A DNA stretch of 64,000 nt from Verrucomicrobiales bacterium (GTDB lineage: Bacteria > Verrucomicrobiota > Verrucomicrobiia > Verrucomicrobiales > V1-33), in contig JANOAV010000035.1 in assembly GCA_031411295.1 (NCBI GenBank), positions 68,926 to 132,925 on the forward strand, read 5' to 3'. Position 1 is the first letter of the stretch; every line of letters starts with the position of its first letter. A model generated the notes under the pieces. That model had not been told where the DNA came from. It saw only the letters and a list, made by a program, of their open reading frames with translations, and did no database searches. A program made the translations under genes and the position numbers. Below are positions 39,428 through 60,358 of this stretch, piece by piece.

Positions 39428-39490
39428 ATTGGACCTCAGTCGGATGCGTTGCTGTTCATTAGCTGTTAGAATATCCGACTTTGGTCGGAT
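39428..39490 (-). promoter_or_regulatory. Two-site dyad array (site 3 at 39428..39445, site 2 at 39473..39490)
   Basis: Minus-strand reading: ATCCGACCAAAGTCGGAT, 27 nt, then ATCCGACTGAGGTCCAATACC. Centre spacing is 45 bp and there is no site 1. Confidence 0.55.
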
Positions 39491-39532
39491 GGAGGACAGG
39501 ATCATGTAGGAAAGAATCATCCTGCAAAATAG

Positions 39533-39640
39533 GTAGAGAGCGAGGTAACGAGACCAGCCCCACGCCCCACAGTAAAAGCGCCACATGGTGCTGGTCTCCT
39601 GACGTCGCCCTCCACATAACCCGTAGCAGGCGAGGTAACC
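39533..39640 (+). repeat. Hairpin repeat family R2, copy A
   Basis: GTAGAGAGCGAGGTAACGAGACCAGC..GCTGGTCTCCTGACGTCGCCCTCCAC plus a partial second unit CCGTAGCAGGCGAGGTAACC. It lies downstream of the FG-GAP gene stop. Confidence 0.6.
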
Positions 39641-39656
39641 ATTTCCTCAATGAAAT

Positions 39657-39687
39657 CACCCGCCGAAGCCAGTGCTCGCGGCGGGTG
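39657..39687 (-). terminator. Candidate terminator of the FG-GAP gene
   Basis: 9-bp GC stem CACCCGCCG / CGGCGGGTG with a 13-nt loop. It is followed on the minus strand by ATTTCATT. Confidence 0.4.
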
Positions 39688-39738
39688 AAAATTTAGATCG
39701 GAGGCAAGAAGCTGAATCCTAGCGACAACCATTTGTCC

Positions 39739-42700
39739 TCACGGCACTTCCTCCACCAGCATCCTCACAAAAAATCTCGGCATCGTCTGCGGCGTATGGC
39801 CCGTGGCGAAAGTTAAAAACGTCCGCCCGCCGACAACCTGAATGGTCGGGTTGCCGCGAGTCCAAACGCCGCCAGTCTCGCTGGCGAAATTATTCCAGAT
39901 CGGCATCTGGGAACCGTCCTCAATCCTCATCCGCACCCGTGGATTGGCCAGTGCCGCATTACTGGCGGTAACCCTGACGTTCACGGGCGACTGCGCAGTA
40001 GGCATCGGTAGCACGGTCAGACGCGCAGCGGCGTTGAGCGATGGCTCTGCCACTGTGGGATTCGTGCCCAGAAAATACTCCAAAAGATTGTAAACACCGT
40101 CGCCATCGGAGTCAGCATAGTTGGCTGCGGTGCCGGTGCCGTCATACTGACCCCAGTTGGTGAAGCGCCAGTTTTCCAGAGTCCCAGTGACGACGAGGCG
40201 CACTAACGCTTCGTCCGTGAGCATGGGATCCAGACGGAAGTCGAGCGTTGGCACTCCCGTGTGCGCTACCAAGGTGCCTGCCGTGGTCGGGTCAGTGACG
40301 TGCTGGATGAAGCAGCCGCGCAACGCGGAGGCATCGGCATTGGCCGTCATACGAATGCGGACCCACAGACGCACGGTCTGGCCGGGGGCAAAATTGATAC
40401 CCGTTGCTGGTGTAACCGTTAGGTAGCCGGTTGAAGTAACGGACCCCACGCTGCCAACCAAGGGATCAATCCCAGACTCGAAATTCATTGGCTCACCGAG
40501 GTCGTTATAGATCTCCACGGCACTAATGAGGGCAGACGCTTGGGCTGTCGTGAGGCCTGCACCCGGATTTAAGCTATTGCCGTAGTTCACGGCCGACAGG
40601 AGTCGAAAGCGCAGACTGCGGATCGCGGCGGAGGCATCCCCGGTGCGTCCGGCATGGGTAAAACTAAGCAACATGGCCACAGGGGCGGCTGAAGGCGTGA
40701 CCGGGATAACGTCGCCCATCCCCAGTTCCATCAGATCAAACTGACCGCAGTTGTTGTAAACGAGTTGCACCTCGTTCCCAGCGGTATCCAGCAACAAAAT
40801 GTCCATGTCTCCATCATGCTCCACATCATACACGACCATGCGATTCAAGGCGGCACCGGAAGCTGAAAAAATGACGTTGGCGGCCCCGAAAGTCCCGTCC
40901 CCTTTCCCTAAGACTAGCACCGCCACGCCACCCCCAGCGGCCACGAGATCCAGCACTCCGTCATTGTTAAAGTCTGCTGCTTCTGCGCAGCGCAGGCCCG
41001 CAGGCAGCCCAAGAATCGGCTTCGGCGTGCCCAAGGTCAAGCTCGTGATCGTGGAAGGCGCGCAATTCACGGTGCCAGTGACAGCATAGAACACATCGGA
41101 GGCTTGGTCCCGATTCGCATCGCCCGTGGCCAACAGACCGGAGGCGCTGTCCCCTTCCCACAGTGGCGTTGGATTGAGCCAAAAGCCAAAGGCCGAGCTC
41201 CAGGCATAACGATAGATGCGGCTGCGGACCGGACTAGTCTCCGTGGTCATGGCCATTAGTTCCAGCCGACCGGAGCCATTGATTTGCACCGGGCAAATCT
41301 TCGTCACGGGTCCTATATTGCTGACCACAATTTCCGTAGTCCAACTGGGAGTATATGCGCCACCTCTGCGCAGCAACGTGATTCCAGTGGCATGACCGAT
41401 GATGATATCGTTGTGGCCATCCTGATCCACATCCGCCACCATCAATTCAGTGGTGCCGGGCGGCAGGGGCGCGACGTTTGTTACCACCCACGTCGAGGCT
41501 GCGCGTGAGACCAACTGCAATTGCCCAATGCCTTCAGCAGCGGTCACCACATCGTCACGACCATCATGGGTGAGGTCGCCCACGGCCAGCACACTAGCTC
41601 CAGCAATGGAGGTGGATATCACCTGCGAATTACCCAGCGCAGGCCCGACGTCGGTATACCGATGCCCACTTTCCCATTTCACCGTATTAAGGGAGGGAAT
41701 GGACCACACCAGATCTCCCTCGCCATCATTGTCCATGTCCCCAGGACAAATATCTCCAATGGGGGCGGACGCATGGATGACCTGTTGGGAGCTAAACTCA
41801 GCGCTGCGGTGAATGGCCGTGTTCCGCAACCAAAAGATACTGCCGATAGCGCTATAAACGAGGTCCGGGTCACCATCACCATCCACATCACCGGAGTAGA
41901 TTTCCGCAGCTTCGTTACCAGCCAGCAGCACCTTGGGAACTAGAAAACTCCCCCCACTGTTCTCCGCCCACAAAATCTGGTGCGAGCCCTGATTACTGTT
42001 GTCCACGTAGAACGCCTGATCTCCGAACACGGCATCCAGATCGCCATCTTCATCCACGTCAACGAGGTGGGTGCCACGCACCCGGCCCGTCGTGTGATTT
42101 TGGATGGAGCTTGGCGCATCGAATCCAGCCCCGTTCCAACGGCACCATGAACTCCGCTGAGCCAAGCCAGCGGTGCCACTAGTCAACACCAGATCGGGGT
42201 AACCGTCACGATCAATGTCCCCACTTTCCATGTGGGTAATGGATCCAGTAAACGTGATATCCGGCCAGGATTGAAAAATGCCGGACGGGGTGCCGCCCAG
42301 GGAGGCAACATTGGTCGCTCCCATCGTCAGATCCATGAAACCATCTTGATCGAAATCTTCCGTCAGCGCTTCGAGCCAATAGGTGGCTGTGACATTCTGC
42401 GTCATTGGTGGCTGGAGCGTGAAGACTCCCGCATTATTTGCCGCCCAAGCAATGCGCCGCACCGATTCCCCGGTCACGGTGTGAAACAATCCTGCATCAA
42501 GGTCCCCATCGCTGTCGTAATCACCCACAATCGCTCCTGCTTGCAGCGCGGCATCAGGAACCGCAACCTCCAGCACTTTCGTAAAAACAAAGTTTGCGTC
42601 ATTGCGCAGCACGACGAGTTGCGAGGGGCTCAAGGTATTGAGGACCACATCCGTGTCACCATCGCCATCCATGTCCCGAGTTACCACCCGGCCCAGCGAG

Positions 42701-42996
42701 GCAGCCGGCCAGGAAAGCGTGGCCACCTGAGTGAACGAGGTTCCGGTGGTGTAACGCATCCATACCAAATTATGCGTGGAGGCTGTCAGCACCTCCTCCT
42801 GACCATCCCGATTGAAATCCGCCACTCCCACCACTTTGCCGAAACTAGTTTGGATCGTCGTCGGCCCAGTAAAAGGATAGGCCATCGCGCGAGGAAGCAA
42901 TGCCGCGAGCATCATGACAGTGCAGAAGATGAGCTTCACTGCGGGACCAGCGAAGCGACGGGTGATGACTTTGGAAAGGGACGGGGTGAATTTCAT
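39739..42996 (-). CDS. Giant secreted FG-GAP/VCBS-repeat (integrin-alpha-like propeller) protein
   Basis: At least 12 Ca-binding-type repeats (DMDGDGDTDVV, GDYDSDGDLDAG, DFDQDGFMDL, GDIDRDGYPDLV, DVDEDGDLDAV, GDVDGDGDPDLV and others), a C-terminal DSDGDGVYNLLEYFLGTNP, and a signal peptide. Confidence 0.9.
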   Translation of the reverse strand: MKFTPSLSKVITRRFAGPAVKLIFCTVMMLAALLPRAMAYPFTGPTTIQTSFGKVVGVADFNRDGQEEVLTASTHNLVWMRYTTGTSFTQVATLSWPAASLGRVVTRDMDGDGDTDVVLNTLSPSQLVVLRNDANFVFTKVLEVAVPDAALQAGAIVGDYDSDGDLDAGLFHTVTGESVRRIAWAANNAGVFTLQPPMTQNVTATYWLEALTEDFDQDGFMDLTMGATNVASLGGTPSGIFQSWPDITFTGSITHMESGDIDRDGYPDLVLTSGTAGLAQRSSWCRWNGAGFDAPSSIQNHTTGRVRGTHLVDVDEDGDLDAVFGDQAFYVDNSNQGSHQILWAENSGGSFLVPKVLLAGNEAAEIYSGDVDGDGDPDLVYSAIGSIFWLRNTAIHRSAEFSSQQVIHASAPIGDICPGDMDNDGEGDLVWSIPSLNTVKWESGHRYTDVGPALGNSQVISTSIAGASVLAVGDLTHDGRDDVVTAAEGIGQLQLVSRAASTWVVTNVAPLPPGTTELMVADVDQDGHNDIIIGHATGITLLRRGGAYTPSWTTEIVVSNIGPVTKICPVQINGSGRLELMAMTTETSPVRSRIYRYAWSSAFGFWLNPTPLWEGDSASGLLATGDANRDQASDVFYAVTGTVNCAPSTITSLTLGTPKPILGLPAGLRCAEAADFNNDGVLDLVAAGGGVAVLVLGKGDGTFGAANVIFSASGAALNRMVVYDVEHDGDMDILLLDTAGNEVQLVYNNCGQFDLMELGMGDVIPVTPSAAPVAMLLSFTHAGRTGDASAAIRSLRFRLLSAVNYGNSLNPGAGLTTAQASALISAVEIYNDLGEPMNFESGIDPLVGSVGSVTSTGYLTVTPATGINFAPGQTVRLWVRIRMTANADASALRGCFIQHVTDPTTAGTLVAHTGVPTLDFRLDPMLTDEALVRLVVTGTLENWRFTNWGQYDGTGTAANYADSDGDGVYNLLEYFLGTNPTVAEPSLNAAARLTVLPMPTAQSPVNVRVTASNAALANPRVRMRIEDGSQMPIWNNFASETGGVWTRGNPTIQVVGGRTFLTFATGHTPQTMPRFFVRMLVEEVP

Positions 42997-43040
42997 GAGA
43001 TTTTGGAAGTTAGATTGAGATGGGTTAAAATATTTCCAAC

Positions 43041-43229
43041 GTTGTGTCGCGACCTGGCACTGTTACTTTCCGTGATTCCCCGGCTCCCTCACACGAGGGA
43101 ACCCGGCGTGGCGCGGGTTACTGATGCCCACCAAGGCTGAATCAGGTCCGCGCAGTTCTCCGCCTAGAGGTTAGGCAGAAAGAGCAGCGCCAGGCCGCGA
43201 CACTCATTTGGTGTGAGGGTAGTTTCCCA
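43041..43229 (-). promoter_or_regulatory. Conserved ~190-nt leader, copy 1 (upstream of the FG-GAP gene)
   Basis: By eye it aligns with 45962..46149 at roughly nine identical positions in ten, with one 1-nt indel. The 45-70 nt next to each ATG and the coding regions are unrelated. Confidence 0.6.
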
Positions 43230-43247
43230 TGTTTTGAGAAATGCGGT

Positions 43248-43341
43248 ATTGGACCTCGGTCGGATGAGTTGCTGTTGAATAGCTGTTAGAATATCCGACT
43301 TTAGTCTTAGAAATGGCTGACAAGTCCGACGTTGGTCGGAT
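43248..43341 (-). promoter_or_regulatory. Three-site dyad array upstream of the FG-GAP gene
   Basis: Site 3 at 43248..43265, site 2 at 43293..43310, site 1 at 43324..43341. Centre spacings are 45 and 31 bp. Confidence 0.6.
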
Positions 43342-43343
43342 GG

Positions 43344-43499: not shown

Positions 43500-45890
43500 T
43501 CACCGCCCTTGAAGGCGATAGAATTTCTTCGGCCCTGAGGGAGGGGCGGTGGCGGTCCAGGTCAGGATGCCACCAGCGGGCATGGTGTCAGTGCGCTCGA
43601 TGGTGCTCCAGTCGAGCAGGTCGGTGGAGGAGCGGATGTCGTATTGTTCGCCCTGGGGACCGCTGATGGTGAGGGTGAAGCGATTCTGAGGATTGAAGCC
43701 GAACGCGGTGATCCTGCTGGAGAGGCCGGGACTGAAGCGCAGGAGGTTCCCGTTAGCCACCCAGATGTGACCAGCACTGTCCAGCGCCACGCGGGAGGCG
43801 CCCTGATAGGTGCCATAGACTTTTGCGGGATCACCGAAGGAGCCGTCGGGCACGACGGTGGCAGGCTGGGTGTGGGCACTTTGATACCATGCGATGTCCT
43901 TCTGATCATAGCGGGAAAGGTAAAGGGTGTCGCTGGCACCGAGGCCCAGGCCGGAGACGAGCGTGCCAGTGGCCGCGTTGTTGGTGGTGAAGTTCGGTTG
44001 CAGCAGCACTCCGTCGGCGTTGCCGTTGTTCGGTTTATTCACCGCAGCTTCAAAACGCAGCACTCGCTCATTGCCCGTGTCTGCGACCCAGAGGCGGCCA
44101 GTGATGAAGTCCACTGCGAGGCATCCAGGAAAATAAAGACCGCTGGCACTGAGCGGATGCGTGCCGGCGGTGGTGAGATTGGACGCGCCTAACACGCCGG
44201 AGGCTGCCCCGCCGTTGCCGAGAGTGATCGGGCTGTCGAAGCGCAGCACGCGATGGTTGTTGCGGTCGGAAACCCACAACCGGCGGACGACGGTCTGGAA
44301 GGTCGCATTAAATCCCCATTCCACCGCCAGCCCGGACGGAGTGTTGAGGCGGGACGCGCCCAGTCCGCTGCCAGCGGCAGTGAAGGTTGCCTGGCCGAGC
44401 ACTTGGCTGGCCGCAGTGCCGCTGGCAATCGTGGTGGCATTGGCAAAGCGGAGCACACGATGATTGCGGGCGTCAGCGACCCAAAGGTTGCCGAGTCCAT
44501 CGTAAGCCAGACTGCCCGGGCCGTCCATCTTCGAGGCCGTGGTGCCGCCAGTTGTGGTATTGAAATCAGGCTGCCCTAGCACGGCCTCGGGCACACTATC
44601 GGCTGTGAGTGATGGTGCCGCAGGGAAGCGGAGCACGCGGTTTCCAGAGGCATCGGACATAAAGAGTTTCCCACTGACGGACTCAACGAGCACCTCGTTG
44701 GCCCCAAGGAACGTGGGGCGTGCGAAGGACTTCCTTCCCAACACGCCGTCCGCATCCGTGCCGTTGCCTTTGGTAGCTGCATTGTCGTGGCGCACGACGC
44801 GGTTGGTGGTGTCACCAATCCAAAGGCGTCCGGCAAAGGCCGCAATGCTGGTCGGAAGCGTGAGGCCGCCCGCGCTTTCGGACATGCTGGCGGAGTTGAA
44901 GTCAATCTGTCCCAGCACGAGATCGGCATTGGCTCCGATCGCCTTGCTGCCTGCAGCCGTGAAATAGAGCGCACGATGATTATTGAAGTCCGCAACCCAC
45001 AGGCCGCCGTTGTCCATCGCAGCCTTGTAAGGCCGGTTGAGACGACTCGGGCCGCCCGCACCAGGAGTCGCGCCATAGACCGACTGACCCAACAGCTTGT
45101 CGCTCGGAGCCCCATTGATTTTGGCCCCGGGATTGTTGAATCCAAGCACACGGTTGTTATACCAATCCACTACCCACAGGCGCACTGTGGTGCCGCCGGA
45201 ATTTTCCACCGCTAGACCAGTGGGTGTATTGAACTCAGTTTCGGTTCCGCCGCTGAATCCACCCGTCATGGAGGTCTGGCCCAACACCCCGTCGGCATTC
45301 ACCCCACTGCTGCGGCTGGCGGCATTGTCAAAACGCAACACGCGGCTGTTTGAGGAATCCGCCACCCACAGCCGGCCAGCGGCATCCATTTCCACATCTT
45401 GCGGTGACTTCATGCGGTTGGCCGCCGTGCCGAAGTCTGTGGAAGTAAAATTTGGCTGCCCCAGAACTACGGAAGCTGCCGCACCGCTGCTGGCGGTGAG
45501 TGCATTATCAAAGCGGAGCACCCGGCTGTTTCCCGTATCCGCCACCCAGAGTCTGCCGCCAGCGTCCACACAGATACCCGAGGGATCATTCAATTGATTC
45601 GTCCCCGCCCCAGGCAGCAACTCATCCATGTCGGCGGCCCCAAACACCGCCTCCGCCAACCCGCCGTTCTGCAGCGATGCCGCCGAACTGAAGCGCAGCA
45701 CACGGTGCCGCGCACCATCGGCCACAAACACTTTCTGCTGCACGGGATCCACTGCGATGTCCTTCGCAGAAAAGAGCCCTGCGGCTTCCATGCCGCCGAT
45801 GACAAGGTCCGGGGTCTGACCGGAAGTGAAACCCGCCTGCGCAGTCGCAGTGGTAAGGAGTAAGGCGATAAGCAATGCGAGTCTGTTCAT
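43500..45890 (-). CDS. Secreted NHL-repeat beta-propeller protein
   Basis: Signal peptide MNRLALLIALLLTTATAQA. At least 10 NHL-type units end in N(H/S)RVLRF (ARHRVLRFSS, GNSRVLRFDN, RNHRVLRFAN and others). Confidence 0.9.
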   Translation of the reverse strand: MNRLALLIALLLTTATAQAGFTSGQTPDLVIGGMEAAGLFSAKDIAVDPVQQKVFVADGARHRVLRFSSAASLQNGGLAEAVFGAADMDELLPGAGTNQLNDPSGICVDAGGRLWVADTGNSRVLRFDNALTASSGAAASVVLGQPNFTSTDFGTAANRMKSPQDVEMDAAGRLWVADSSNSRVLRFDNAASRSSGVNADGVLGQTSMTGGFSGGTETEFNTPTGLAVENSGGTTVRLWVVDWYNNRVLGFNNPGAKINGAPSDKLLGQSVYGATPGAGGPSRLNRPYKAAMDNGGLWVADFNNHRALYFTAAGSKAIGANADLVLGQIDFNSASMSESAGGLTLPTSIAAFAGRLWIGDTTNRVVRHDNAATKGNGTDADGVLGRKSFARPTFLGANEVLVESVSGKLFMSDASGNRVLRFPAAPSLTADSVPEAVLGQPDFNTTTGGTTASKMDGPGSLAYDGLGNLWVADARNHRVLRFANATTIASGTAASQVLGQATFTAAGSGLGASRLNTPSGLAVEWGFNATFQTVVRRLWVSDRNNHRVLRFDSPITLGNGGAASGVLGASNLTTAGTHPLSASGLYFPGCLAVDFITGRLWVADTGNERVLRFEAAVNKPNNGNADGVLLQPNFTTNNAATGTLVSGLGLGASDTLYLSRYDQKDIAWYQSAHTQPATVVPDGSFGDPAKVYGTYQGASRVALDSAGHIWVANGNLLRFSPGLSSRITAFGFNPQNRFTLTISGPQGEQYDIRSSTDLLDWSTIERTDTMPAGGILTWTATAPPSGPKKFYRLQGR

Positions 45891-45961
45891 GGTATGAATG
45901 AAGTTGCAGGAATTCTCCTGTTGGTTTGGGTTTTGCAGTGATTGAAGAAATGGAATCCAAA

Positions 45962-46149
45962 GTGATGTCGCGGCCTGGCACTGTTACTTTCCGTGGTTCC
46001 CCGGATCCCTCACACGAGGGCTCCCGGCGTGGCGCGGATTGCTGATGCCCACCAAGGTTAATCAGGTCCGCGCAATTCTCCGCCTAGAGGTTAGGCAGAA
46101 AGTGCAGCGCCAGGCCGCGACACTCAGTTGGTGTAAGGCTAGCTTCCCA
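45962..46149 (-). promoter_or_regulatory. Conserved ~190-nt leader, copy 2 (upstream of the NHL gene)
   Basis: See 43041..43229. A shorter third copy of the distal ~75 nt lies at 39352..39427. Confidence 0.6.
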
Positions 46150-46168
46150 CACCTGGCAGAAAACGGGT

Positions 46169-46262
46169 ATCGGACCTCAGTCGGATACGTTGCTGCTGAT
46201 TAGCTGTTAGATCATCCGACTTTAGTCCTAGAAGCCCGTGTCAATTCCGACCTTGGTCGGAG
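46169..46262 (-). promoter_or_regulatory. Three-site dyad array upstream of the NHL gene
   Basis: Site 3 at 46169..46186, site 2 at 46214..46231, site 1 at 46245..46262. Centre spacings are 45 and 31 bp. Confidence 0.6.
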
Positions 46263-47148: not shown

Positions 47149-47205
47149 GGCTATGGAAGCTCTTGGTGGCGTGGGTAATCTTTCCACCACCGGACCAAAT
47201 AGGGT

Positions 47206-47266: not shown

Positions 47267-47316
47267 GCTACCCAATTGTTCCCATCCCAAAGCGCAACGG
47301 CCAAGCGTTGGATCCT

Positions 47317-50300
47317 TTAGTTCCATGCCGGAATCCGCACTGTGAAGGTGGTGCCTTCCCCAAGTTTGGAGTGCACTTCCAAGGTGCCACCATGTAGTTC
47401 CGTGCACCGCTTGCAGAGCACCAAACCGAGGCCAGTGCCGGCAATGTTACCGACGTTACTGGCTCGATGGAAGGCTTCGAAGAGCTCTGGCAGGTCGGCC
47501 TCCGGGATGCCGATGCCACTGTCCCGCACGGTAAATACCGCCATGCTGCCATCGCGTCGTGCGCTGAGATGCACTGCCGATCCTTCTGGAGAATATTTCA
47601 CCCCATTGCTAAGTAGATTGGTGAAAATATGGCGCAGCAGAGCCTCATCCGCCTGGGCTCCCGCAAGTTCACTTTCCGCAGTCCAGACAATGGGACACCT
47701 GCCGTTTGTCAGAGACCATTGCTCGTCAGTGACCTTGCGGGAGAAGGCATTCAGATCCAGCGGAACCGGCTTGGAACCGAGTTTGCCAGCATCCACCCGT
47801 CCCAAGACCAGCACCTGTTCCATGAGGCCAGCCATATTACGCGTGGAGGAATGGATGTCCTGGAGCAATTGTTTTTTCTCCTCCGGCGGAAGGCGATCCT
47901 CATAGTGTTGCAATAGTTCAACTGCGCTCATCGTGATGCCCAGCGGAGTGCGGAATTCGTGACTCACCGTGGTCACAAATCGATTTTTCAGCTCATTGAC
48001 CTCACGCTCTGCGGCAAGCTCGCGTTCCTTTGATGACGCCAGATCCACCGCTTCCACGAACTCGCTCGAGAGCCGCTTCTGGCGACGAAAGAGCGCCACC
48101 CCAAGCAAACTAGCAGCAGTAGCGGAAACGAGACCAAGGACAATGGGCAGCAGGCCGGAGTTACTGGTTTCTGATTTGTTGGTAAGATGATTTGCAATCG
48201 GTGAACCAGCCGTCCAATCCAGACCAAGTTCAGCCAGATGATCCCGTCGCAACGCGCCCAGATTGATGACGCGAGCATTTCCCCCCGGCCCCGTGGCGAA
48301 CATGCGTGAGGCATCGGCAGAGAAACGCAAGCCTGTTAGCGGGTAAAGTCCCGGCACTTGAAACGATGCCAGTGACTTGCCATTGCCAGCGCTGGCGATC
48401 TCCGCGCTGTCCAGATCGCCAGTCCATGCGAGCATGGTGCCATCTCCCGAAAATGCTGCGGCCCCGAGAAATCCTGCCAACGATGCCGGACGGGCCACGG
48501 ACCAGTTTTCCTGCCATGACCCCACCGACCACAGTTGCACGTTGCGGACGCCAATCGTCACCAGCGAACGGCTGTCCGGGCTGAAGCACACATGCGCCAC
48601 CGGACAAGGCAGGCGCGCTACTAGCTTGCCCGTGCCCGCATCCCAAATGGTGGGATCTCCCGAAACCGTGTCGCGTCCAGCCACGACCCATTTCCCATCC
48701 GGGCTGATCGCCAGCGCCCCGGAACCCAACGCACTAGCCGGCCCCGGCAAGTCCTGAGGAAAGCGCGTCCCTTGTTCCAGAGCCAAGGGCGCGGAAGGGT
48801 CCGCCATTTTCACGACATAGAGCTGGCCATCACTGCAGGCAATGGCCGCAACTTTTCCAAGATCGCTAAACGCTGCCATCACGGGAGTCAGACCAGCCGG
48901 CAATGGAATGCGACCGGCCTCCGGCAAACCTCCCTTCGGCAAGTTGGCAAGATCCGGCCATTCGTGAATCGTGAGCGCTCCCGGAGCGCTGAGCCAGATG
49001 CGATTGGTGCCAGGCAAAAATCCAGCGCAAACCTTGCGTCCAAGCGGCAGCAAGGCCTGCAGGGAACGATCCGGCTCAAAAAGCTCGAGGGAATGCGCCC
49101 CGGTCCAGATGGGCGGAGACCACAACGCGCGACGACCATCAGTTGAGAAATCCTGCTGCCAAATGGTGGCCCCGTCCGTGTAGCGTCCTTGCAGCAGCGT
49201 ATCTGATGAAGGTTGCGCCACGCGCCAAACGCCAACTTTCTGCTTCGGAATACCCCAGGCGATGCGATCCCCGCGTCTCGATATCACCACCCCGCGAGCC
49301 GCATTCGACTGACACAACAGCTTGGCGGTGGACACATCCCAGAGACTGGTTACTCCGTCCAACCCAGCCGTAAGCAGCAGTGAACCATCCTCATTGAAAC
49401 GCTGCACCCACGGCTGCACGGTGCGACCACCCAGCTGCAGTAACCGACCCGAGGCGGCCTCCATGAGGAAGAGCGTGGCATTCCCGCAACCAAATGCGAG
49501 ACGGTCCCCACGCTGATCCCAATCCAGCGTCTTCACAGAGGTCGGAGCTAGCGCCGTGTGTTTCACCGCACCCGAGACCGCATCCAAGAGAAAAACTTGC
49601 GCCCCTTGAAACCATGCCAGCAGATCTCCGCGTGGGCTCACCGCCACTTGATTCTGCGGGCCGGTATATTTCAAAAGATCCGGCATAGTGGCGGGCCGCC
49701 GTGGCTGTTTACTGGCGATATCATAGAGCACATCAGTTCCCTGGGAGCCGGAAAGGGTGATTCCCATCGTCAGATCATTCGCAGTAAAGGTAGGCGGCCA
49801 CGAGTAGTTTGCGGACTTCGCATCCATTCCTAAAATGCAGACCGTGCTCCCCTTATCACGCTCGAACAACACCAGCGGGCCCTTTTCATAACGCACTGCG
49901 AGATACTTCCCAGTGGAGGAAAACTGAAAGTCCATGGCTGCACATTCGGCCGGCACTTCCGGCGGGCGGGGAAAATCCCTAACCAGAGCATTATCTTCCA
50001 AGCGAAACATCGAAACCACGCCCAACTGGTAGCGCGTGACATAGTGCTCAAGCTCTGGATCGAACGCGAAGCCGCGGACATTTTCTTTCAAATCCCACGC
50101 CACCTCGGTTTCAAAATCCAGGGATCGCAACGCCGCGATCGCTTCGTTTCGTAACTCCACAGAAGGTCGGATGGCCGCCGCCGCCCGCACTGCGCCCAGC
50201 GCGGCCGCACGATGCCCTGCCTGCGGGTTGGTGCGCTCCGCGCTGGCCCGCGCCAGCGACACGCCCCAAAGCCGTTCGGTGGCCTCACTCTCCGCCTGCT

Positions 50301-50484
50301 CGGCTCGCAACTGATGCCGCCCACTGCGAATGGCGAAATACACTGCCAGGCACGCCAGGCCCAGCGCCACGAATAGCAGCAGCCCCAAAGCACGATTCGC
50401 GCGCAGCAGATCAGCCTGCACTTCATTGCGGCGTTTGGTCAAGAGTTTGGCTTCTCTTTGGTTGGCGGAACCTTTTATTTTCAT
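47317..50484 (-). CDS. Orphan sensor histidine kinase HK2 with a ~700-aa extracytoplasmic WD40-like beta-propeller sensor
   Basis: TM1 LLLFVALGLACLAVYF. WD40-like units (LLTAGLDGVTSLWDV, SPDGKWVVAGRD..PTIWDA, FSPDSRSLVTIG..VQLWSV). TM2 LLPIVLGLVSATAASLLGVALF. H-box SHEFRTPLGITMSAVELLQHYEDRL and an HATPase_c domain. Confidence 0.9.
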   Translation of the reverse strand: MKIKGSANQREAKLLTKRRNEVQADLLRANRALGLLLFVALGLACLAVYFAIRSGRHQLRAEQAESEATERLWGVSLARASAERTNPQAGHRAAALGAVRAAAAIRPSVELRNEAIAALRSLDFETEVAWDLKENVRGFAFDPELEHYVTRYQLGVVSMFRLEDNALVRDFPRPPEVPAECAAMDFQFSSTGKYLAVRYEKGPLVLFERDKGSTVCILGMDAKSANYSWPPTFTANDLTMGITLSGSQGTDVLYDIASKQPRRPATMPDLLKYTGPQNQVAVSPRGDLLAWFQGAQVFLLDAVSGAVKHTALAPTSVKTLDWDQRGDRLAFGCGNATLFLMEAASGRLLQLGGRTVQPWVQRFNEDGSLLLTAGLDGVTSLWDVSTAKLLCQSNAARGVVISRRGDRIAWGIPKQKVGVWRVAQPSSDTLLQGRYTDGATIWQQDFSTDGRRALWSPPIWTGAHSLELFEPDRSLQALLPLGRKVCAGFLPGTNRIWLSAPGALTIHEWPDLANLPKGGLPEAGRIPLPAGLTPVMAAFSDLGKVAAIACSDGQLYVVKMADPSAPLALEQGTRFPQDLPGPASALGSGALAISPDGKWVVAGRDTVSGDPTIWDAGTGKLVARLPCPVAHVCFSPDSRSLVTIGVRNVQLWSVGSWQENWSVARPASLAGFLGAAAFSGDGTMLAWTGDLDSAEIASAGNGKSLASFQVPGLYPLTGLRFSADASRMFATGPGGNARVINLGALRRDHLAELGLDWTAGSPIANHLTNKSETSNSGLLPIVLGLVSATAASLLGVALFRRQKRLSSEFVEAVDLASSKERELAAEREVNELKNRFVTTVSHEFRTPLGITMSAVELLQHYEDRLPPEEKKQLLQDIHSSTRNMAGLMEQVLVLGRVDAGKLGSKPVPLDLNAFSRKVTDEQWSLTNGRCPIVWTAESELAGAQADEALLRHIFTNLLSNGVKYSPEGSAVHLSARRDGSMAVFTVRDSGIGIPEADLPELFEAFHRASNVGNIAGTGLGLVLCKRCTELHGGTLEVHSKLGEGTTFTVRIPAWN

Positions 50485-50548: not shown

Positions 50549-50642
50549 ATCCGACTAAAGTCGGATACGGAACTGAAATGCAGGACCAAAGTCGGATGCT
50601 CCAGGCCCCTCTAGCAGATCCCTTATCCGACCATGGTCCAAT
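50549..50642 (+). promoter_or_regulatory. Three-site dyad array in the divergent HK2 / DUF4870 intergenic region
   Basis: Site 1 at 50549..50566 (ATCCGACTAAAGTCGGAT), site 2 at 50580..50597, site 3 at 50625..50642 (ATCCGACCATGGTCCAAT). Centre spacings are 31 and 45 bp. Confidence 0.6.
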
Positions 50643-50675
50643 ACCACAATCAGCAGAATTGTGGAAGGATGAAAC

Positions 50676-51170
50676 ATGCAGCAAAACACTCAGCTGCTAA
50701 CTCCGCGACTAACAAAGCGCAATTTCACTTCAACCATCAATAATCCTTACCATCATAACCTTATGAACCATACCACCATCGAAAACCAACTCGCCAAAGC
50801 CCGTCGTTTCCAACTGAATCTGGAGGAGGCACCTGCTTTCGGTGCGGGCTCCATGCCAGCCTCTGAAGAGCGCACCTTCGCCATGCTGGCGCATCTGTTC
50901 CCACTCATCGTGTGGCCTTGGAAACGCAAGTCCAGCTCGGCTGTGGATGCCCACGGCAAAGAAGCGCTGAATTTTGCGATTACCGCCCTGCTCATCATTT
51001 GGCCCATCGGATTCATCGCAGGCTTCTGCGGCGTGACCGTCGCCAAAATTGTGGCCCTGGGCACCAGCGTGCTGAGCCTAGGCCTCCTGGCATTGGTCGT
51101 CTGCGCCATGATTCAGGCCGGCAAAGGAAGGCTCCTCCGTTATCCCATCAACTTCCGCTTCATCAAATAA
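50676..51170 (+). CDS. DUF4870-family membrane protein
   Basis: ERTFAMLAHLFPLIVWPWKRKSSSAVDAHGKEALNFAIT matches the DUF4870 pattern. An alternative start is the ATG at 50763. Confidence 0.7.
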   Translation: MQQNTQLLTPRLTKRNFTSTINNPYHHNLMNHTTIENQLAKARRFQLNLEEAPAFGAGSMPASEERTFAMLAHLFPLIVWPWKRKSSSAVDAHGKEALNFAITALLIIWPIGFIAGFCGVTVAKIVALGTSVLSLGLLALVVCAMIQAGKGRLLRYPINFRFIK

Positions 51171-51222
51171 ATCAACTCACTCAACTAACCTATAAATCAA
51201 AACTCCTAACCTTCACCATCCT

Positions 51223-51738
51223 ATGAAAAACACTACTATTAAACACCCCCTCATCGCCCTCCTCAGCCTCTCCAGCATTACCGGGCTCACCAGTTGTTCC
51301 GAAAAGGCCACTGCTGCAAACGGTAAGGCTGCACCTACTGCCGACAAGGCTGCAGGCAACACGGAACAAACCTTTGTGGCCGCCTTCCGCACAGCTTTGG
51401 AGAAAAACGACAAGAAAACGCTGGATTCATTTCTCCTGAAGGATGGCACTCCCGCGGAGATCGTGGAATTCTTCACCATGATGATGGACCTGCCCGCGGG
51501 CATGAAGATTGAAAGCGTCGAATTGGTCACTCCAACTGCGGAAGAGGCAGCGAAATACAACAAGGCCATGGAAATGCCTGATGGCAAAAGCTACAAACTG
51601 CCCGTGACCCCCACGAAACAACTGGTGATTATCATGAAAGAGGAGGGAGCCAATGGCAGCGGCACCTCCAAGTCATCCCTGCCAGTGGCGGAGAAGGACG
51701 GTAAGATCGTCATCCCCCTGCCCGTGCCTGCCGCATAA
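51223..51738 (+). CDS. Lipoprotein, function unknown
   Basis: Lipobox LSSITGLTSC after a signal sequence; 171 aa. Confidence 0.65.
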   Translation: MKNTTIKHPLIALLSLSSITGLTSCSEKATAANGKAAPTADKAAGNTEQTFVAAFRTALEKNDKKTLDSFLLKDGTPAEIVEFFTMMMDLPAGMKIESVELVTPTAEEAAKYNKAMEMPDGKSYKLPVTPTKQLVIIMKEEGANGSGTSKSSLPVAEKDGKIVIPLPVPAA

Positions 51739-51847
51739 CGAATAACGGAATCCAACGAACGTCTTGCCAACCGTCGCCACCCTGCTCCCAGGGTGGCGGC
51801 GGCCACCGCTGGGATAAGCCACCTCATCACGAAAGCTCCGCTGATCT

Positions 51848-52339
51848 ATGAAAACCGCCACCCGCCAACAAACAATTTTTCGACGCATCATCGGCACGTG
51901 CCTGATTGCCTTCGCCCTTGTCGGCATTACCGCGCTTTGCCTGAAGGAAATCCCGCTGGCTTTCTTTGGGATGCACGCCACTGGTTTTGTGAAACAAGTG
52001 GAAGTCATCCAGACGAGCACGGCTTCAAAATGGCGCTACAGTCAACCGCAAAGCCGCAGTGGCTCCACCACGATCATGCACATGGTCCACACGACCACGG
52101 AGGGGAAACCGATTGAGAGCAAACACACCGCCACGTTCCACACCGAGGCCAAAGTAGGTGACGAGCACGAATTAATTTATCTCCCATGGCATCCGCAGCG
52201 CGCCATGATCTATAGCGCCAAGCAACTGTGGTTACCCATGACGACCGGAGTAATCTTTAGCACCATCTGCCTGTTTCTGGGCCTGCGGTGCTTCCGCGCC
52301 AAGCCCTTCTTCCCCACCCCGAAAGGATTCCAATCCTAA
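51848..52339 (+). CDS. DUF3592-like membrane protein
   Basis: An N-terminal TM, a beta-rich middle with AKVGDEHELIYLPWHPQRA, and a C-terminal TM. Confidence 0.6.
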   Translation: MKTATRQQTIFRRIIGTCLIAFALVGITALCLKEIPLAFFGMHATGFVKQVEVIQTSTASKWRYSQPQSRSGSTTIMHMVHTTTEGKPIESKHTATFHTEAKVGDEHELIYLPWHPQRAMIYSAKQLWLPMTTGVIFSTICLFLGLRCFRAKPFFPTPKGFQS

Positions 52340-52677
52340 TGATCAAGACCGGAACCATCCCACAGGTATCCAGCGCCACCGCTTTCACTCCCGCTCTTCC
52401 AGCAAAAGAAATCGTGACCGCGAAACAACACGCCGCCTTGTGGACCGTGATCCTCGTCCTGGTGGCCATCACCAGCGCCATGGGATGGCTGGTGCTGCGT
52501 GGTATCGAACGCGGTGAGACCGTCATGCCTTCCAAACACGCCTCACGTCAACGCCCCCTCATCCGAAATCAAGCACCAGCCTCCTTCTGGGGTGCGCTGA
52601 GTGTTTACACCTTAGTCGGCCTCAGCACTGGCGCTGGCAGCCTGTGGCTCATCCGCATGGCATGGCGGATCAAGTAA
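52339..52677 (+). CDS. Small membrane protein
   Basis: The start is taken at the ATG overlapping the previous stop (TAATG at 52337..52341). Two TM segments. Confidence 0.5.
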   Translation: MIKTGTIPQVSSATAFTPALPAKEIVTAKQHAALWTVILVLVAITSAMGWLVLRGIERGETVMPSKHASRQRPLIRNQAPASFWGALSVYTLVGLSTGAGSLWLIRMAWRIK

Positions 52678-52721
52678 ACAGGCAGTGATTCGCGAAGAAT
52701 TGCGGATGTTGGCGGCGGCGT

Positions 52722-52739
52722 ATCCGACTAAAGTCCTAG
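52722..52739. promoter_or_regulatory. Single dyad site upstream of HK3
   Basis: ATCCGACTAAAGTCCTAG, centred about 65 nt upstream of the proposed HK3 ATG at 52796. It lies inside the longer track ORF. Confidence 0.5.
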
Positions 52740-52795
52740 GTGCCGGGTGGGGGTTGGGCTTGCGGCGGGTGGGGGTCGCTGCGAAGTTATTGGCT

Positions 52796-55700
52796 ATGAA
52801 TCATGAAGGCCAGCAGACGGGTGAGACCGCTGAAACGGAGAATTTCGCGCAGCGTCGCGAGTTCGTCCGGCGTTCGGTGCTGCGGGCCAATCGGGCGGTG
52901 GGGTTGATTTTGGGGGTGGTGGTGCTACTGGGATTGGTGCTAGTAATTTTGGGACAGCAGGCACGGGAAAGCCAGCGGCGGGCGGAGCTGGCGGAACAGG
53001 GGGCGACAGACCGGCTCTGGAAGGCATCGCTGGAGCAGGCGCGGGCGCAAAATCTGGGCACAAAGGCGGGGCATCGGGAGGGCGCGCTGGAAGCGGTGCG
53101 CACGGCTGCGAAAATTCGCCCCTCAGTGGAGTTGCGCAACGAGGCCATCGCTGCGCTGTCCCAACGGGATCTGGTGCAAGAACGAGAATGGACCCTGCAA
53201 CCGAAGGCCTATGGGACGGTGTTTGATCCGGAACTGAAATACTATGTGGAGCGTTATCAGGACCGGGTGCTCTCACTCTTTCGGGTCGAGGATAACTCCC
53301 ATGTGCATAATTTTCCCATGCCGTTTTTCTATCCCAAGAATGCGAATGTGGGGGACTATGTCTTTTCCTCCACGGGGAAGTATTTAGTGATCCGCTATAA
53401 CGGCGGCGGGCTTACACTCTGGGATCCGCTCAAGGCGCAGATGCTGCGGGTATTGAATCTGGATCCCCGGGCGGCCCAATATTCCTGGCCGCCTTCGTTC
53501 AGCGCGGATGATCGACTGATGGGGTTGAGTATGAACGGAAGCGCAGGGTTCCAGATGGTGTATGATTTGGAAAAAGGGGAAGTGCGCCCACTGGGGGCCA
53601 CGCCTGGAAAGCTTGCCTACCGCGGCGGTTTCAACTTCGTCCGCGTCAGCCCGCGCGGTGATCTCATTGCCGCTTGGGACACAAATATGATTTATGTTTT
53701 CGATGCGGTCACTGGGGAACTGCGACATTCCGTGCAGGGACAATCAACCATTGAGGCGATCGCGTGGGACTATCAGGGAAAGCGGCTCTCGTTGGCCTGC
53801 GATGATTGGTCAGTGTCAATCTGGGAACCCTCCGGAGGTCAGATGATGCAATTGAATGGCAAGGCACACCGCGCGTGGTTCCAAGAGTTCAGCCGTGACG
53901 GCAATCTGCTAGTGGCCTCCGGCATAGATGGCATGACGCGGCTGTGGGATGCGGTTTCGGGAAGGCTCGTGTGCGAGCAGGGCGGCCTGCTGGCTGCGAG
54001 GGTCTCACCAGATGGTCAGCGGATCGCAGGTGGCCGGCACCGCCAGACGTCGGGCATCTGGCGCGTAGAACAACCGGTGGCGCTGAAGTTGTTTCGTGGC
54101 GCGTGGGCAAAGCGTGCCACGGCATGGATGATGGACCTGACTGGCGATGGTCGGCGGGGCGTCTGGTCGCCACCGTGGTGGGTGGGGCAGAATGGCTACG
54201 AGGTTTTCGATTTTGAAAAAGGCACCAGCATTGTGCGCGCGGACAAGGATCGGTTATTCGCTGGATTTCGTCCCGGGCATGATCAGCTCTGGACGACCAG
54301 TGGCGGGGCGCTAAAATTTTACGACCTGCCAGCAGAAGGCACGGTGCCCGAGGCGGCCGCGCTGACGATGGCGTTGCCGAAAGGGATCAACGGCATTGTC
54401 GCCAGCTTCAACGCGGACGGACGCTATGTGGCGCTCTCCGGGCCGCAGCGGGCGCTTGCCGTCATGGATCTCAATGCGCCGACGGCACCACCAGTCACAT
54501 TGGAACGAGCATTTACCAGTGCCGACAGTTCGCTGCCCGGCCCCGCCTCCACCACTGGCGGCGGCCCACTGGCCATGAGTCCCGACGCACGCTGGGTGGC
54601 TGCGGGAATGAATGTGGACGGCGGGCGTCCGGTGATTTGGGATGCTCATTCCGGCAGGATCGTGCAACGCTTGAATTGCGCATTGGGTTATGTGACCTTC
54701 AGTCCGGACGGACTTTATCTCACAGTCGTGAGTTCAGCTCGCTTGGTGTGCTTTGCCATGGATGGCTGGAAACTGCTCTGGGAGCGGGAACGGGATCTAC
54801 AGCAGAGTTATTGCGGCATAGCGGCGTTCAACGGAGATGGTTCACTGCTGGCGTGTTCGATGGGATCAGCGCGGGTCGTTTTCTACACGCTCCAGGGGGA
54901 CGCGGTAGCGGAGTGGGACTTCCGCGATCTGCTGTATGTGGCCAACCTGCGTTTCGCTGCGGATGGCAGTCGCCTCTTCGCTGGCGGGCTGGAGGGCCGC
55001 ATCGCCAGTGTGGACATGACCGCGCTGCGCCAAGTCTTGGCCACGCTGCAGCTCGACTGGCCATTGCGCGCCAGCACCACCACTCCAACCGTGACCACTA
55101 GCAGCGGCACCAATGCCTGGGGTCCTGCGCTGTTAGGATTAATCTCGGTCGGCGTCGCTGCGGCGTTAGGAGCCCTGGTGCTGCGGCGGCAGCGGAGGCT
55201 CACCGGAGAGTTTGTGGAAACAACAGAACTCGCAGCGCGTCGGACGCAGGAACTGGCTGCCGAGAAAGAGGTGAGCGAATTAAAGAGTCGCTTCGTGACC
55301 ACGGTCAGCCACGAATTCCGCACCCCGCTGGGCATCACCATGAGTGCCATCGAACTCCTGCGGCACTACGAAGATCGCCTGCCACCGACGGAGAAGAAGC
55401 AACTTTTCGAGGACATTCATTCCTCTACCAAAAACATGGCCGGCCTCATGGAACAGGTCTTGCTACTGGGCCGCGTGGATGCAGGCAAGTTGGCCTACAA
55501 GCCCGTGCCGGTGGACCTTGACGCCTTGGCACGCAAGCTTACCGATGAGTCGCTCTCCGCCACCAACCGCAAGTGTCCCATCACATGGCAGGCAGAAAAC
55601 GACCTCTCCGGGGCCCACGCGGACGAAGCACTGCTGCGGCATATTCTCACGAATCTGCTCAGCAACGCAGTGAAATATTCCCCTGCCGAAGCTCTGGTTC

Positions 55701-55954
55701 ATTTCCGCGCCCGACGCGAAGGACTCATGGCGGTATTTACCGTGCAGGACAGCGGCATTGGCATACCAGAGAAGGATCTGCCCCAGTTGTTCGAAGCCTT
55801 CCATCGCGCCAGCAACGTGGGGGAAATCCCCGGCACTGGCCTTGGTCTCGTGCTCAGCAAACGTTGCGCAGATCTCCACAACGGCAGCATCCAAGTGAAA
55901 TCCACCCCGGGCTCAGGCACCACATTCACCGTGCGCATTCCAGCGTGGGGGTGA
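52796..55954 (+). CDS. Orphan sensor histidine kinase HK3, paralogue of HK2 (WD40-like propeller sensor)
   Basis: Collinear with HK2 from the N-terminus (RANRAVGL..RLWKASLEQARAQ..IRPSVELRNEAIAAL) through the propeller, TM2 and H-box SHEFRTPLGITMSAIELLRHYEDRL. The start is moved to MNHEGQQ. Confidence 0.9.
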   Translation: MNHEGQQTGETAETENFAQRREFVRRSVLRANRAVGLILGVVVLLGLVLVILGQQARESQRRAELAEQGATDRLWKASLEQARAQNLGTKAGHREGALEAVRTAAKIRPSVELRNEAIAALSQRDLVQEREWTLQPKAYGTVFDPELKYYVERYQDRVLSLFRVEDNSHVHNFPMPFFYPKNANVGDYVFSSTGKYLVIRYNGGGLTLWDPLKAQMLRVLNLDPRAAQYSWPPSFSADDRLMGLSMNGSAGFQMVYDLEKGEVRPLGATPGKLAYRGGFNFVRVSPRGDLIAAWDTNMIYVFDAVTGELRHSVQGQSTIEAIAWDYQGKRLSLACDDWSVSIWEPSGGQMMQLNGKAHRAWFQEFSRDGNLLVASGIDGMTRLWDAVSGRLVCEQGGLLAARVSPDGQRIAGGRHRQTSGIWRVEQPVALKLFRGAWAKRATAWMMDLTGDGRRGVWSPPWWVGQNGYEVFDFEKGTSIVRADKDRLFAGFRPGHDQLWTTSGGALKFYDLPAEGTVPEAAALTMALPKGINGIVASFNADGRYVALSGPQRALAVMDLNAPTAPPVTLERAFTSADSSLPGPASTTGGGPLAMSPDARWVAAGMNVDGGRPVIWDAHSGRIVQRLNCALGYVTFSPDGLYLTVVSSARLVCFAMDGWKLLWERERDLQQSYCGIAAFNGDGSLLACSMGSARVVFYTLQGDAVAEWDFRDLLYVANLRFAADGSRLFAGGLEGRIASVDMTALRQVLATLQLDWPLRASTTTPTVTTSSGTNAWGPALLGLISVGVAAALGALVLRRQRRLTGEFVETTELAARRTQELAAEKEVSELKSRFVTTVSHEFRTPLGITMSAIELLRHYEDRLPPTEKKQLFEDIHSSTKNMAGLMEQVLLLGRVDAGKLAYKPVPVDLDALARKLTDESLSATNRKCPITWQAENDLSGAHADEALLRHILTNLLSNAVKYSPAEALVHFRARREGLMAVFTVQDSGIGIPEKDLPQLFEAFHRASNVGEIPGTGLGLVLSKRCADLHNGSIQVKSTPGSGTTFTVRIPAWG

Positions 55955-55981
55955 GCTGGCAAATCATCGTCCACCTGCGGG

Positions 55982-56043
55982 CTAAGACTAAAGTCGGATA
56001 AGATCGCACCATAAATACTCTCCTTATCCGACTGAGGTCCGAT
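55982..56043 (+). promoter_or_regulatory. Two-site dyad array upstream of the DUF4412 gene
   Basis: Site 2 at 55982..55999 (CTAAGACTAAAGTCGGAT), site 3 at 56026..56043 (ATCCGACTGAGGTCCGAT). Centre spacing is 44 bp. Confidence 0.55.
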
Positions 56044-60349: not shown

Positions 60350-60358
60350 TTTGCAATA

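Follow-up and report, generated by a model that had tools for sequence, protein, structure and literature searches.

A conserved intergenic palindrome as the candidate operator of a NarL/FixJ-type two-component regulon in Verrucomicrobiaceae

At the fha and ptx promoters of Bordetella, BvgA binds as several GerE-type dimers per promoter, with a strong perfect inverted repeat in the distal position and weaker variants near the core promoter, and its dimers tile contiguously to the -35. In the Dos system of Mycobacterium tuberculosis, DosS and DosT are GAF-haem HisKA_3 kinases. The C-terminal dimer of DosR reads GGGACT in each half of a palindrome of 20 base pairs (bp) through K179, K182 and N183, and its box at hspX is centred at -43.5 next to a suboptimal -35, tandem phased boxes being needed for activation (PMC3177182; PMC13486717). 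The present analysis concerns a stretch of 64,000 nucleotides (nt) from a Verrucomicrobiales bacterium (contig JANOAV010000035.1), hereafter the window, 86% of which is coding, and within it an inverted repeat, the dyad, that recurs upstream of genes for secreted and envelope proteins. It is judged likely that these dyads are the operators of a two-component regulon conserved across Verrucomicrobiaceae, in which a NarL/FixJ-type regulator would bind them and activate secreted and envelope genes together with its own kinases. The first-pass annotation of the window had not recognised the motif as that of any characterised regulator, and a full-text literature search likewise found nothing on this motif or system in Verrucomicrobia; the type of system is ordinary, and this particular one is undescribed.

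The dyad has the consensus TATCCGAC-TWWA-GTCGGATA, and 18 copies are present in the window. It is a 7-4-7 inverted repeat in which the information per position peaks at the T, G, A and C of TCCGAC, and its length of about 18-20 bp fits a head-to-head GerE dimer. The pattern ATCCGAC-N4-GTCGGAT, with up to three mismatches, was matched 18 times versus 2.98 expected, a count that none of 100 shuffled sequences reached; one of these matches (position 3247) is due to chance. A half-site weight matrix with a threshold of at least 14 bits gave 18 dyads in the window versus 0.07 expected. Given that the matrix was trained on these same sites, its count in the window is partly circular, and it is the pattern and shuffle count, the recurrence in other genomes and the association with the regulator that are free of this circularity. 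All of the matrix dyads (18 of 18) are intergenic and span 38.2-62.7 kilobases (kb), and the matrix found no dyad in window positions 1-38000. The recurrent composite array described by the first-pass annotation is thus confirmed by enrichment, intergenic restriction and spacing, and the motif does not occur at a similar density in coding DNA, as a generic repetitive extragenic palindrome (REP) would: neither coding DNA nor the first 38 kb contains it.

Dyads are grouped in arrays (B to G, Table 1), in which site 3 is the gene-proximal one and site 1 the most distal. In the arrays that have a site 1, namely C (43.3 kb), D (46.2 kb) and F (50.5 kb), it lies 31 bp from site 2; sites 2 and 3 are separated by 45 bp in B, C, D and F, by 44 bp in G and by 43 bp in E. 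The gene-distal half of site 2 is CTARGAC or GCAGGAC, and the gene-proximal half of site 3 is GTCCRATACC, so that both the spacings and the position-specific half-site variants described earlier were reproduced. The accompanying statement that the arrays are not a duplicated block stands in part: the spacers are unrelated while the spacing is fixed, but arrays B, C and D are paralogous copies of a single block that includes spacer and leader. For this reason, the window holds four independent arrays and not six, and the 31-bp spacing occurs in only two independent instances. Site 2 of arrays C, D, F and G has an outward half that is degraded to CTARGAC or GCAGGAC, and the inward half and the distance of 43-45 bp are kept despite the unrelated spacers. 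No middle site was found between the dyads 44 bp apart, the best internal scores being -10 to -20 bits, which is no better than random, and a hidden site at this place was rejected. The set of the first-pass annotation is extended by the lone dyads at 38260, 52722 and 62664 and by the one at 50549, which faces a kinase gene as well; for 52722 and 62664 the targets are uncertain. The heptamer TCTAACA directly follows site 2 in several arrays (window 39446-39472, 43266-43292 and 46187-46213; about 5828 in locus L009 and 6628 in locus L105, loci of other genomes being designated by L numbers), and thus recurs also in arrays of other genomes whose spacers are otherwise unrelated.

The dyads co-occur with a NarL/FixJ-type regulator, composed of REC and GerE domains, that carries the recognition helix SEKT[AV]KQH[LM]G. 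Pfam recognises both domains in the regulator that adjoins dyads in L005, L019, L020, L021 and L105. A metagenome scan with an alignment of the regulator gave 80 loci with 54-88% identity. All 12 testable loci with SEKT[AV]KQH[LM]G, versus 1 of 67 other REC-GerE relatives, have a dyad of at least 14 bits in the 320 nt before the regulator gene (Fisher p = 2.5e-13), the dyad density being 2.6 versus 0.27 per 10 kb, and the motif is never present in the large paralogue family with SESTVKKHV. The motif therefore co-varies with the recognition helix and stands upstream of the regulator's own gene, as in autoregulation. Orthologues of the dyad-associated regulator share 70-88% identity across genera, including Brevifollis gellanilyticus. 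The NarL/FixJ type suggested by the first-pass annotation is supported by this specific co-occurrence with one REC-GerE family. The cognate regulator gene and a single-domain globin gene always diverge from each other, with one shared dyad between them; the window has no globin gene. This neighbour hints at a link to O2, NO or redox.

Three paralogous sensor histidine kinases are encoded in the window, all with HisKA and HATPase_c domains, one with PAS and two with WD40 propellers, and each has a dyad in front. The dimerisation and histidine phosphotransfer (DHp) region sets partner specificity. In this region the window kinases are 58-78% identical to kinases beside the cognate regulator versus 41-45% to the kinase encoded at 13139-14674, and for this reason they are best read as sensors of a cognate regulator that is encoded elsewhere. 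By sequence they belong to the cognate kinase family, and these large sensor kinases probably phosphorylate the dyad-binding regulator. The start of kinase 3 is ambiguous: dyad 52722 is downstream of GTG 52685 (longest open reading frame) and also of the gene-caller start 52706, and no ATG follows it before 52796.

Conservation was explored by scanning 185,579 species genomes with a composite pattern (inner half of site 2, 24-28 nt, site 3). The scan gave 17 loci, where about 20 chance matches are expected, and 11 of the 17 are chance. The other six belong to Verrucomicrobiaceae (Prosthecobacter, Brevifollis and metagenome-assembled genomes), and in these six and no others two matrix-positive dyads are separated by exactly 44 bp and the proximal half is GTCCGATAC, with CCC after it. 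In other genomes the two-dyad unit always comes with this distance of 44 bp and with the proximal GTCCGATACCC variant. A match in a metagenome-assembled genome of Anaerolineae (L003, 3984-4365) was rejected; it consists of tandem copies of CAATCGGACTTAGGTCGGATTG, an unrelated repeat that matches the pattern by chance.

At the related loci the motif precedes kinases, regulator and targets alike. L005 and L006 have an orthologue of kinase 1 (50-58% identity) divergent beside the array, followed by the REC-GerE regulator gene with a strong dyad just before its start codon. A dyad is found upstream of the kinase 1 orthologue in L005, L006 and L012, and before the regulator gene in L005, L006, L019, L020, L021 and L105. 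Ten dyads occur within 20 kb in L019, some of them forming a 44-bp array next to a kinase, one preceding a second kinase and one standing between globin and regulator. In L020 the only dyad is that between globin and regulator, in L021 a kinase-regulator operon is preceded by two dyads with a spacing of 33 bp, and L022 has a weak site only. Spacing is 33-35 bp at some kinase or regulator operons, and further arrays are present in L019, L035 and L105. The DUF4412 protein downstream of array G has close relatives, and the one in L105 (74% identity) lies on a single contig with DUF4870, a kinase, a globin and a regulator with the helix SEKTAKQHLG. On this contig, the DUF4870 orthologue and the DUF4412 orthologue are each preceded by a 44-bp array, and a further array, a site that faces a kinase and the dyad shared by globin and regulator are also present. 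L106 is more distant, and its DUF4412 orthologue has upstream a variant overlapping site that terminates in GTCCAATAC. An overlapping architecture of three half-sites, ATCCGAC-N4-GTCCTAGGAC-N4-GTCCGATAC, was seen in L019 (11581-11612 and 16875-16915) and L106 (9617-9652), with offsets of 14 or 23 bp and the same CTAGGAC variant half.

In L005, L006, L007, L012 and L019, the array's distal dyad would also be the -43.5-type site of a divergent kinase gene, whose ATG is 48-50 nt from the dyad centre and toward which an extended -10-like element is found. Judged from this arrangement, the unit in these five loci comprises two promoters back to back, the kinase being read in one direction and the secreted protein in the other. 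Among the window arrays, only F faces a kinase. The ordered array relative to the downstream gene, which the first-pass annotation had proposed, thus holds in the window, but relatives mostly use the 44-bp unit as a divergent promoter pair.

Promoter geometry was determined from 11 non-redundant proximal sites and their promoters, with offsets counted from the dyad centre. The conserved downstream positions are C+11, C+12, T+29, G+30, G+31 (11 of 11), A+33 (11 of 11), G+35, A+36 and T+37, and a TGTGG-nAnnnT element lies 27-37 nt downstream of the centre. A TGG with an A/T-rich hexamer is found at the same offset toward kinases (TGGCAGAAT at the second kinase of L019, TGGTAATAC in L007, TGGTAATCG at window kinase 1), and the same-offset element also stands beside regulator-family loci (TGGTATAAA in L072, TGGTATAGA in L041). 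Start codons are 42-44 nt from the dyad centre for the regulator (L005, L019, L020, L023, L024, L105), 43-46 nt for the globin and 43 nt for window gene 50676. The conserved pattern would correspond to a TRTGn extended -10 with an invariant A at -11, which would place the start near +44 and the dyad centre near -43.5. Given that start-codon offsets of 42-46 leave no room for a leader, transcripts would start about 43-46 nt from the dyad centre, and the regulator and globin mRNAs are probably leaderless. A sigma-54 promoter after site 3 was rejected, with the -12 GC absent at the window loci and inconsistent spacing, as was a conserved upstream open reading frame in the block after site 3, where frames are not conserved.

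The dedicated regulon with a dimeric regulator at several sites per promoter, as first proposed, is supported by a motif that is confined to non-coding DNA, conserved upstream of orthologues and tied to one REC-GerE family. The motif, its spacing, its intergenic restriction, its conservation and its association with the regulator and kinase families were computed directly. In the proposed mechanism, a dimer of the regulator would bind the 20-bp palindrome and the large sensor kinases would phosphorylate it, with positive feedback on those sensors that, like the three in the window, lie behind their own dyads. The gene-proximal dyad near -43.5 would replace the missing -35 before a weak extended -10 of the TRTGn type, so that the regulator would activate in the class II manner of DosR at hspX, and target promoters would use the conserved variant proximal half-site GTCCRATACCC. 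The second dyad 43-45 bp upstream, sometimes with a third 31 bp further, keeps its gene-facing half intact and could aid occupancy by dimer-dimer contact across the gap of about 24-27 bp between the 18-bp cores, or drive a divergent kinase gene. A helper role of the upstream dyads in target activation is suggested by the persistence of the inward half, the distance and the site itself with unrelated spacers, and the lack of a cryptic middle site suggests that the dimers do not tile as those of DosR and BvgA do.

Several observations weigh against this mechanism. A sigma-70 scan at the arrays found no canonical -35/-10 pair, with scores at chance level. The -10-like hexamers are weak, and are absent at 52722, at 62664 and at 50549 toward its kinase. 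A distance of 44-45 bp corresponds to about 4.2 helical turns, which is not cleanly in phase, with a gap that has no middle site. Binding, activation in preference to repression, the transcription start and cooperativity are what the sequence would imply, the choice of an activator being drawn from its geometry and the start from sequence conservation and start-codon positions. L035, with the helix AEKTVKKHMGN, also carries dyads and is an exception to the helix rule; two loci with distant sites have, like L035, AEKTVKKHMG, in which both lysines matching DosR K179 and K182 are retained. The cognate regulator gene of the source organism was not recovered from the searched contigs of sample SRR20217193 (23.6, 5.7 and 20.6 kb). 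The association between regulator and motif is also partly confounded by phylogeny, with orthologues and motif sharing one clade; that it is not only a clade effect is indicated by the paralogue without dyads in the same genome and by the 38 kb of the window that are empty.

An unlikely, though credible, alternative keeps the same regulator and sites and has the dyads act mainly as operators of a repressor or autorepressor, with the pair spaced by 44 bp forming a repression loop and the dyads overlapping the core promoter or sitting just downstream of the start. The regulator/globin dyad is indeed only 42-46 nt from both start codons, no -35 or strong -10 is recognisable, and paired operators at set distances are typical of looping repressors. 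Nonetheless, 44 bp is too short for ordinary looping, an absent -35 is typical of activator-dependent promoters, and the positionally conserved TRTGn-nAnnnT element does not overlap the dyads but follows them at the distance expected if they are class II activator sites. DosR, the closest characterised analogue, activates from -43.5.

It is improbable that a different transcription factor binds the dyads and that the REC-GerE regulator, the kinases and the globin are merely members of its regulon. A motif before the regulator gene would also be expected of a regulated target, and the clade effect discussed above confounds the association test in favour of this explanation. However, the 20-kb neighbourhoods share no other gene for a DNA-binding protein, the 7-4-7 palindrome with its GAC-T-WW-A-GTC core has the geometry read by GerE dimers such as DosR, and the base-reading lysines are kept exactly in the dyad-associated subfamilies and lost in the dyad-less paralogue families.

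The candidate regulator named in the first-pass annotation, the REC-GerE protein 12510-13142 with its HisKA kinase 13139-14674 (operon 12510-14674, minus strand), has the right domain architecture, is the only GerE-type or DNA-binding response regulator in the window, and is 52-53% identical to the cognate family. True orthologues reach 70-88% across genera, which makes it a paralogue, and the cognate regulator gene is not in the window. In its helix, SLGTVKKHTNH, glycine takes the place of DosR K179 and lysine that of N183. Window 1-38000 has no dyad, including upstream of its operon, and the DHp region of the partner kinase is only 41-45% identical to those of the three dyad-associated kinases. 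It is improbable that this regulator, with its kinase, is the protein that binds the dyads.

Deviations from the consensus also indicate what kind of site the dyad is. Of 30 deviations across the 18 dyads, 25 are one-sided and break pairing, four lead to G-U and one is compensated, and it is because they are mostly one-sided and uncompensated that the dyads are read as DNA sites and not RNA hairpins. A search of window 37500-64000 with the Rfam 15 covariance models gave no match at E <= 1 for dyads or leader, and the hairpin or terminator interpretation was rejected on both counts. The breaking of pairing by 25 of 30 deviations, the fixed offsets to gene starts and the empty window 1-38000 are also unlike a REP or a miniature inverted-repeat transposable element. 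That the dyads are generic REPs, remnants of a mobile element, RNA hairpins or terminators without a regulator is next to impossible, since, although they are intergenic and palindromic and loci B, C and D are duplicated blocks, they stand at set distances upstream of gene starts and not at 3' ends, with none in 38 kb of neighbouring sequence, one-sided and position-specific half-site deviations, constant spacing across unrelated spacers, conservation before orthologues in other genera and no Rfam match.

Table 1. Coordinates of dyads, genes and associated features in the window and of globin genes at related loci
Feature	Position	Strand	Basis or remark
Lone perfect dyad upstream of kinase 35565-38231 (-)	38260..38277	.	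32.5 bits; TGGTAATCG at +29 to +37 toward kinase
Array B site 3, ATCCGAC-TGAG-GTCCAAT on - strand	39428..39445	-	pattern + matrix
Array B site 2, perfect dyad, 45 bp from site 3	39473..39490	-	pattern + matrix
Array C site 3 (proximal)	43248..43265	-	pattern + matrix
Array C site 2, distal half CTAAGAC	43293..43310	-	pattern + matrix
Array C site 1, 31 bp from site 2	43324..43341	-	pattern + matrix
Array D site 3 (proximal)	46169..46186	-	pattern + matrix
Array D site 2, distal half CTAGGAC	46214..46231	-	pattern + matrix
Array D site 1	46245..46262	-	pattern + matrix
Array E site 3 (proximal)	47206..47223	-	pattern + matrix
Array E site 2, 43 bp from site 3	47249..47266	-	pattern + matrix
Array F site 1, perfect dyad; 73 nt upstream of divergent kinase 47317-50484 (-)	50549..50566	.	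pattern + matrix
Array F site 2, distal half GCAGGAC	50580..50597	+	14.9 bits
Array F site 3 (proximal); ATG 50676 at offset 43 from centre	50625..50642	+	matrix
Lone dyad, one half GTCCTAG, before kinase 52685/52796-55954 (+)	52722..52739	.	matrix
Array G site 2, distal half CTAAGAC	55982..55999	+	pattern + matrix
Array G site 3, 44 bp from site 2	56026..56043	+	pattern + matrix; orthologous array in L105 at 4407/4451
Lone dyad between lipid-metabolism operon (-, start ~62513/62555) and secreted esterase 62852-63694 (+)	62664..62681	.	matrix
Extended -10-like element TGTGGGAAAGG, array G	56061..56071	+	offsets +27 to +37 from site 3 centre
Extended -10-like element TGTGGAAGGAT, array F	50660..50670	+	positional conservation
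Extended -10-like element GGTGGAAAGAT, array E	47178..47188	-	positional conservation
Extended -10-like element TGTGGGAAGCT, array D	46141..46151	-	positional conservation
Sensor kinase 1 (PAS, HisKA, HATPase_c); orthologue of kinase beside cognate regulator in L005/L006	35565..38231	-	
Sensor kinase 2 (WD40 propellers, HisKA, HATPase_c)	47317..50484	-	
Sensor kinase 3 (WD40 propellers, HisKA, HATPase_c)	52685..55954	+	
Array B putative targets, small secreted and membrane proteins	38454..39383	-	Pfam, N-terminus inspection
Array C putative target, 1085-aa FG-GAP repeat protein	39739..42996	-	Pfam, N-terminus inspection
Array D putative target, 796-aa NHL repeat protein with signal peptide	43500..45890	-	Pfam; NHL homologues follow arrays in L005, L010, L012
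Array E putative target, 181 aa, without Pfam family	46603..47148	-	Pfam
Array F putative target operon: DUF4870 protein, lipoprotein, two membrane proteins	50676..52677	+	orthologous array in L105 at 67/111
Array G putative targets: DUF4412 protein and 95-aa secreted protein	56128..57090	+	Pfam, inspection
Structured ~170-nt 5' leader, array C to FG-GAP gene	43036..43211	-	no Rfam match
Second leader copy, array D to NHL gene	45957..46131	-	no Rfam match in window 37500-64000
Globin gene, L005	6264..6674	-	
Globin gene, L019	9485..9913	-	
Globin gene, L020	77..511	-	
Globin gene, L105	9287..9715	-	
aa, amino acids.

The genes downstream of the arrays had been described as coding for envelope or secreted proteins, and this is borne out by inspection of the N-termini of their products, which have signal peptides, a lipobox or transmembrane segments. 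Pfam confirms FG-GAP, NHL, DUF4870 and DUF4412 among them, but the DUF3592 labels are without support, given that Pfam gave no DUF3592 match for 46603-47304 or 51848-52339.

The leader that follows arrays C and D has a closing stem of 19 bp and three internal hairpins, with seven pairs showing compensatory changes among three sequences. A further copy lies in L009 (5907-6079, plus strand) and a remnant at window 39353-39391 (minus strand, array B), and an nhmmer search across all fetched loci found only the copies at C, D and L009 and the remnant at B. This leader of about 170 nt is a possible new cis-regulatory RNA, which may add a second layer of control to the genes of the giant secreted propeller proteins. 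The invariant pair of dyads 44 bp apart may in turn form a module whose inward halves match the consensus and whose outward halves are variants, the 18-bp cores being separated by about 24-27 bp that are empty. In this module two dimers may bridge about 4.2 turns and fire leaderless or short-leader transcripts both ways, and it may have been repeatedly co-opted in this genome into one-directional arrays. Taken jointly, an obligate higher-order module for the dyad pair and a new class of cis-regulatory RNA for the leader are tentative proposals.

A five-gene lipid-related operon (window 57354-62555, minus strand) begins 110-160 nt from dyad 62664 and codes for a membrane protein, an acyltransferase, a CDP-diglyceride synthase, a hydrolase-methyltransferase fusion and a PAP2 protein with a dual-specificity phosphatase; it may be a member of the regulon. 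A CTP_transf_1 gene in L021 and a BD-FAE esterase gene in L022 are found 7-8 kb from the regulator. A 36-codon open reading frame at offset 45 from dyad 62664 looks spurious. Unrelated to the dyads, a transposase-like gene of the PD-(D/E)XK family (26401-27234, plus strand) lies beside a Sel1-repeat protein.

Gene regulation in Verrucomicrobia is almost uncharted, and the assignment of operator, regulator and kinases proposed here spans Prosthecobacter, Brevifollis and uncultured Verrucomicrobiaceae, including the cultured strain Brevifollis gellanilyticus. It is clear that the class of mechanism is familiar; the value lies in an assignment that is clean and testable in a cultured relative within a poorly studied phylum. 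It provides a candidate promoter architecture for the phylum, in which a class II site at about -43.5 stands before an extended -10 of the TRTGn type and transcripts are probably leaderless. The regulon opens up a group of large secreted proteins, beta-propellers and DUF proteins, whose function is unknown. The WD40 propellers in the system's own kinases hint at a circuit for surface sensing or surface remodelling. It also brings a caution for automated regulon inference, given that the nearest regulator of the same family in the window is the wrong paralogue.

Among described systems, FixL/FixJ shares with the present one the pairing of a HisKA (PF00512) kinase carrying PAS with a REC-GerE regulator, and StyR, of the FixJ subfamily, is among the best full-length PDB matches of window paralogue 12510-13142. 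Unlike FixL/FixJ, no haem-PAS signature and no sign of oxygen sensing is found here, an association with haem or oxygen being hinted at only by the neighbouring globin, and FixJ target sites at fixK and nifA differ from this palindrome. With BvgA at fha and ptx, and with the 7-2-7 sites of NarL, the dyad arrays would share the occupation of each promoter by several GerE-type dimers and have in common a perfect repeat in the distal position with variants in the proximal one, but they lack an intermediate site and differ in half-site sequence and in the 4-bp spacer.

DevR/DosR and its Dev boxes differ in several respects. The regulator described here is not an orthologue, its GerE domain matching DosR only at E = 2e-5 with DosR chains ranked 25th or lower and CviR, GerE and VraR scoring better, and N183 is replaced by glutamine. 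Compared with the Dev box TTSGGGACTWWAGTCCCSAA, the GACTWWAGTC core is common and the flanking triplet, at half-site positions 3-5, is TCC/GGA here versus SGG/CCS, so that the two consensus sequences do not coincide. Here 31 and 43-45 bp separate the boxes and the gaps are empty, whereas the boxes of DosR abut at about 21 bp; the kinases are of the HisKA type with PAS or WD40 sensor regions, and the targets are secreted propeller and envelope proteins. Nonetheless, both systems rely on a NarL-family REC-GerE regulator and a 20-bp palindrome with the identical core geometry GAC-T-WW-A-GTC, and the equivalents of K179 and K182 are conserved in the dyad-associated regulator (EKT[AV]K). Both also have several boxes per promoter and divergent promoters that share boxes. 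As read from the sequence, further parallels would be a proximal box near -43.5 with a poor -35, the box of DevR/DosR being at -42.5/-43.5 over the -35 region, more than one kinase feeding one regulator, and autoregulation. By this comparison, the dyad system resembles a regulon of the NarL/FixJ family, closest to that of DosR in the geometry of its sites and in their predicted position at the promoter.

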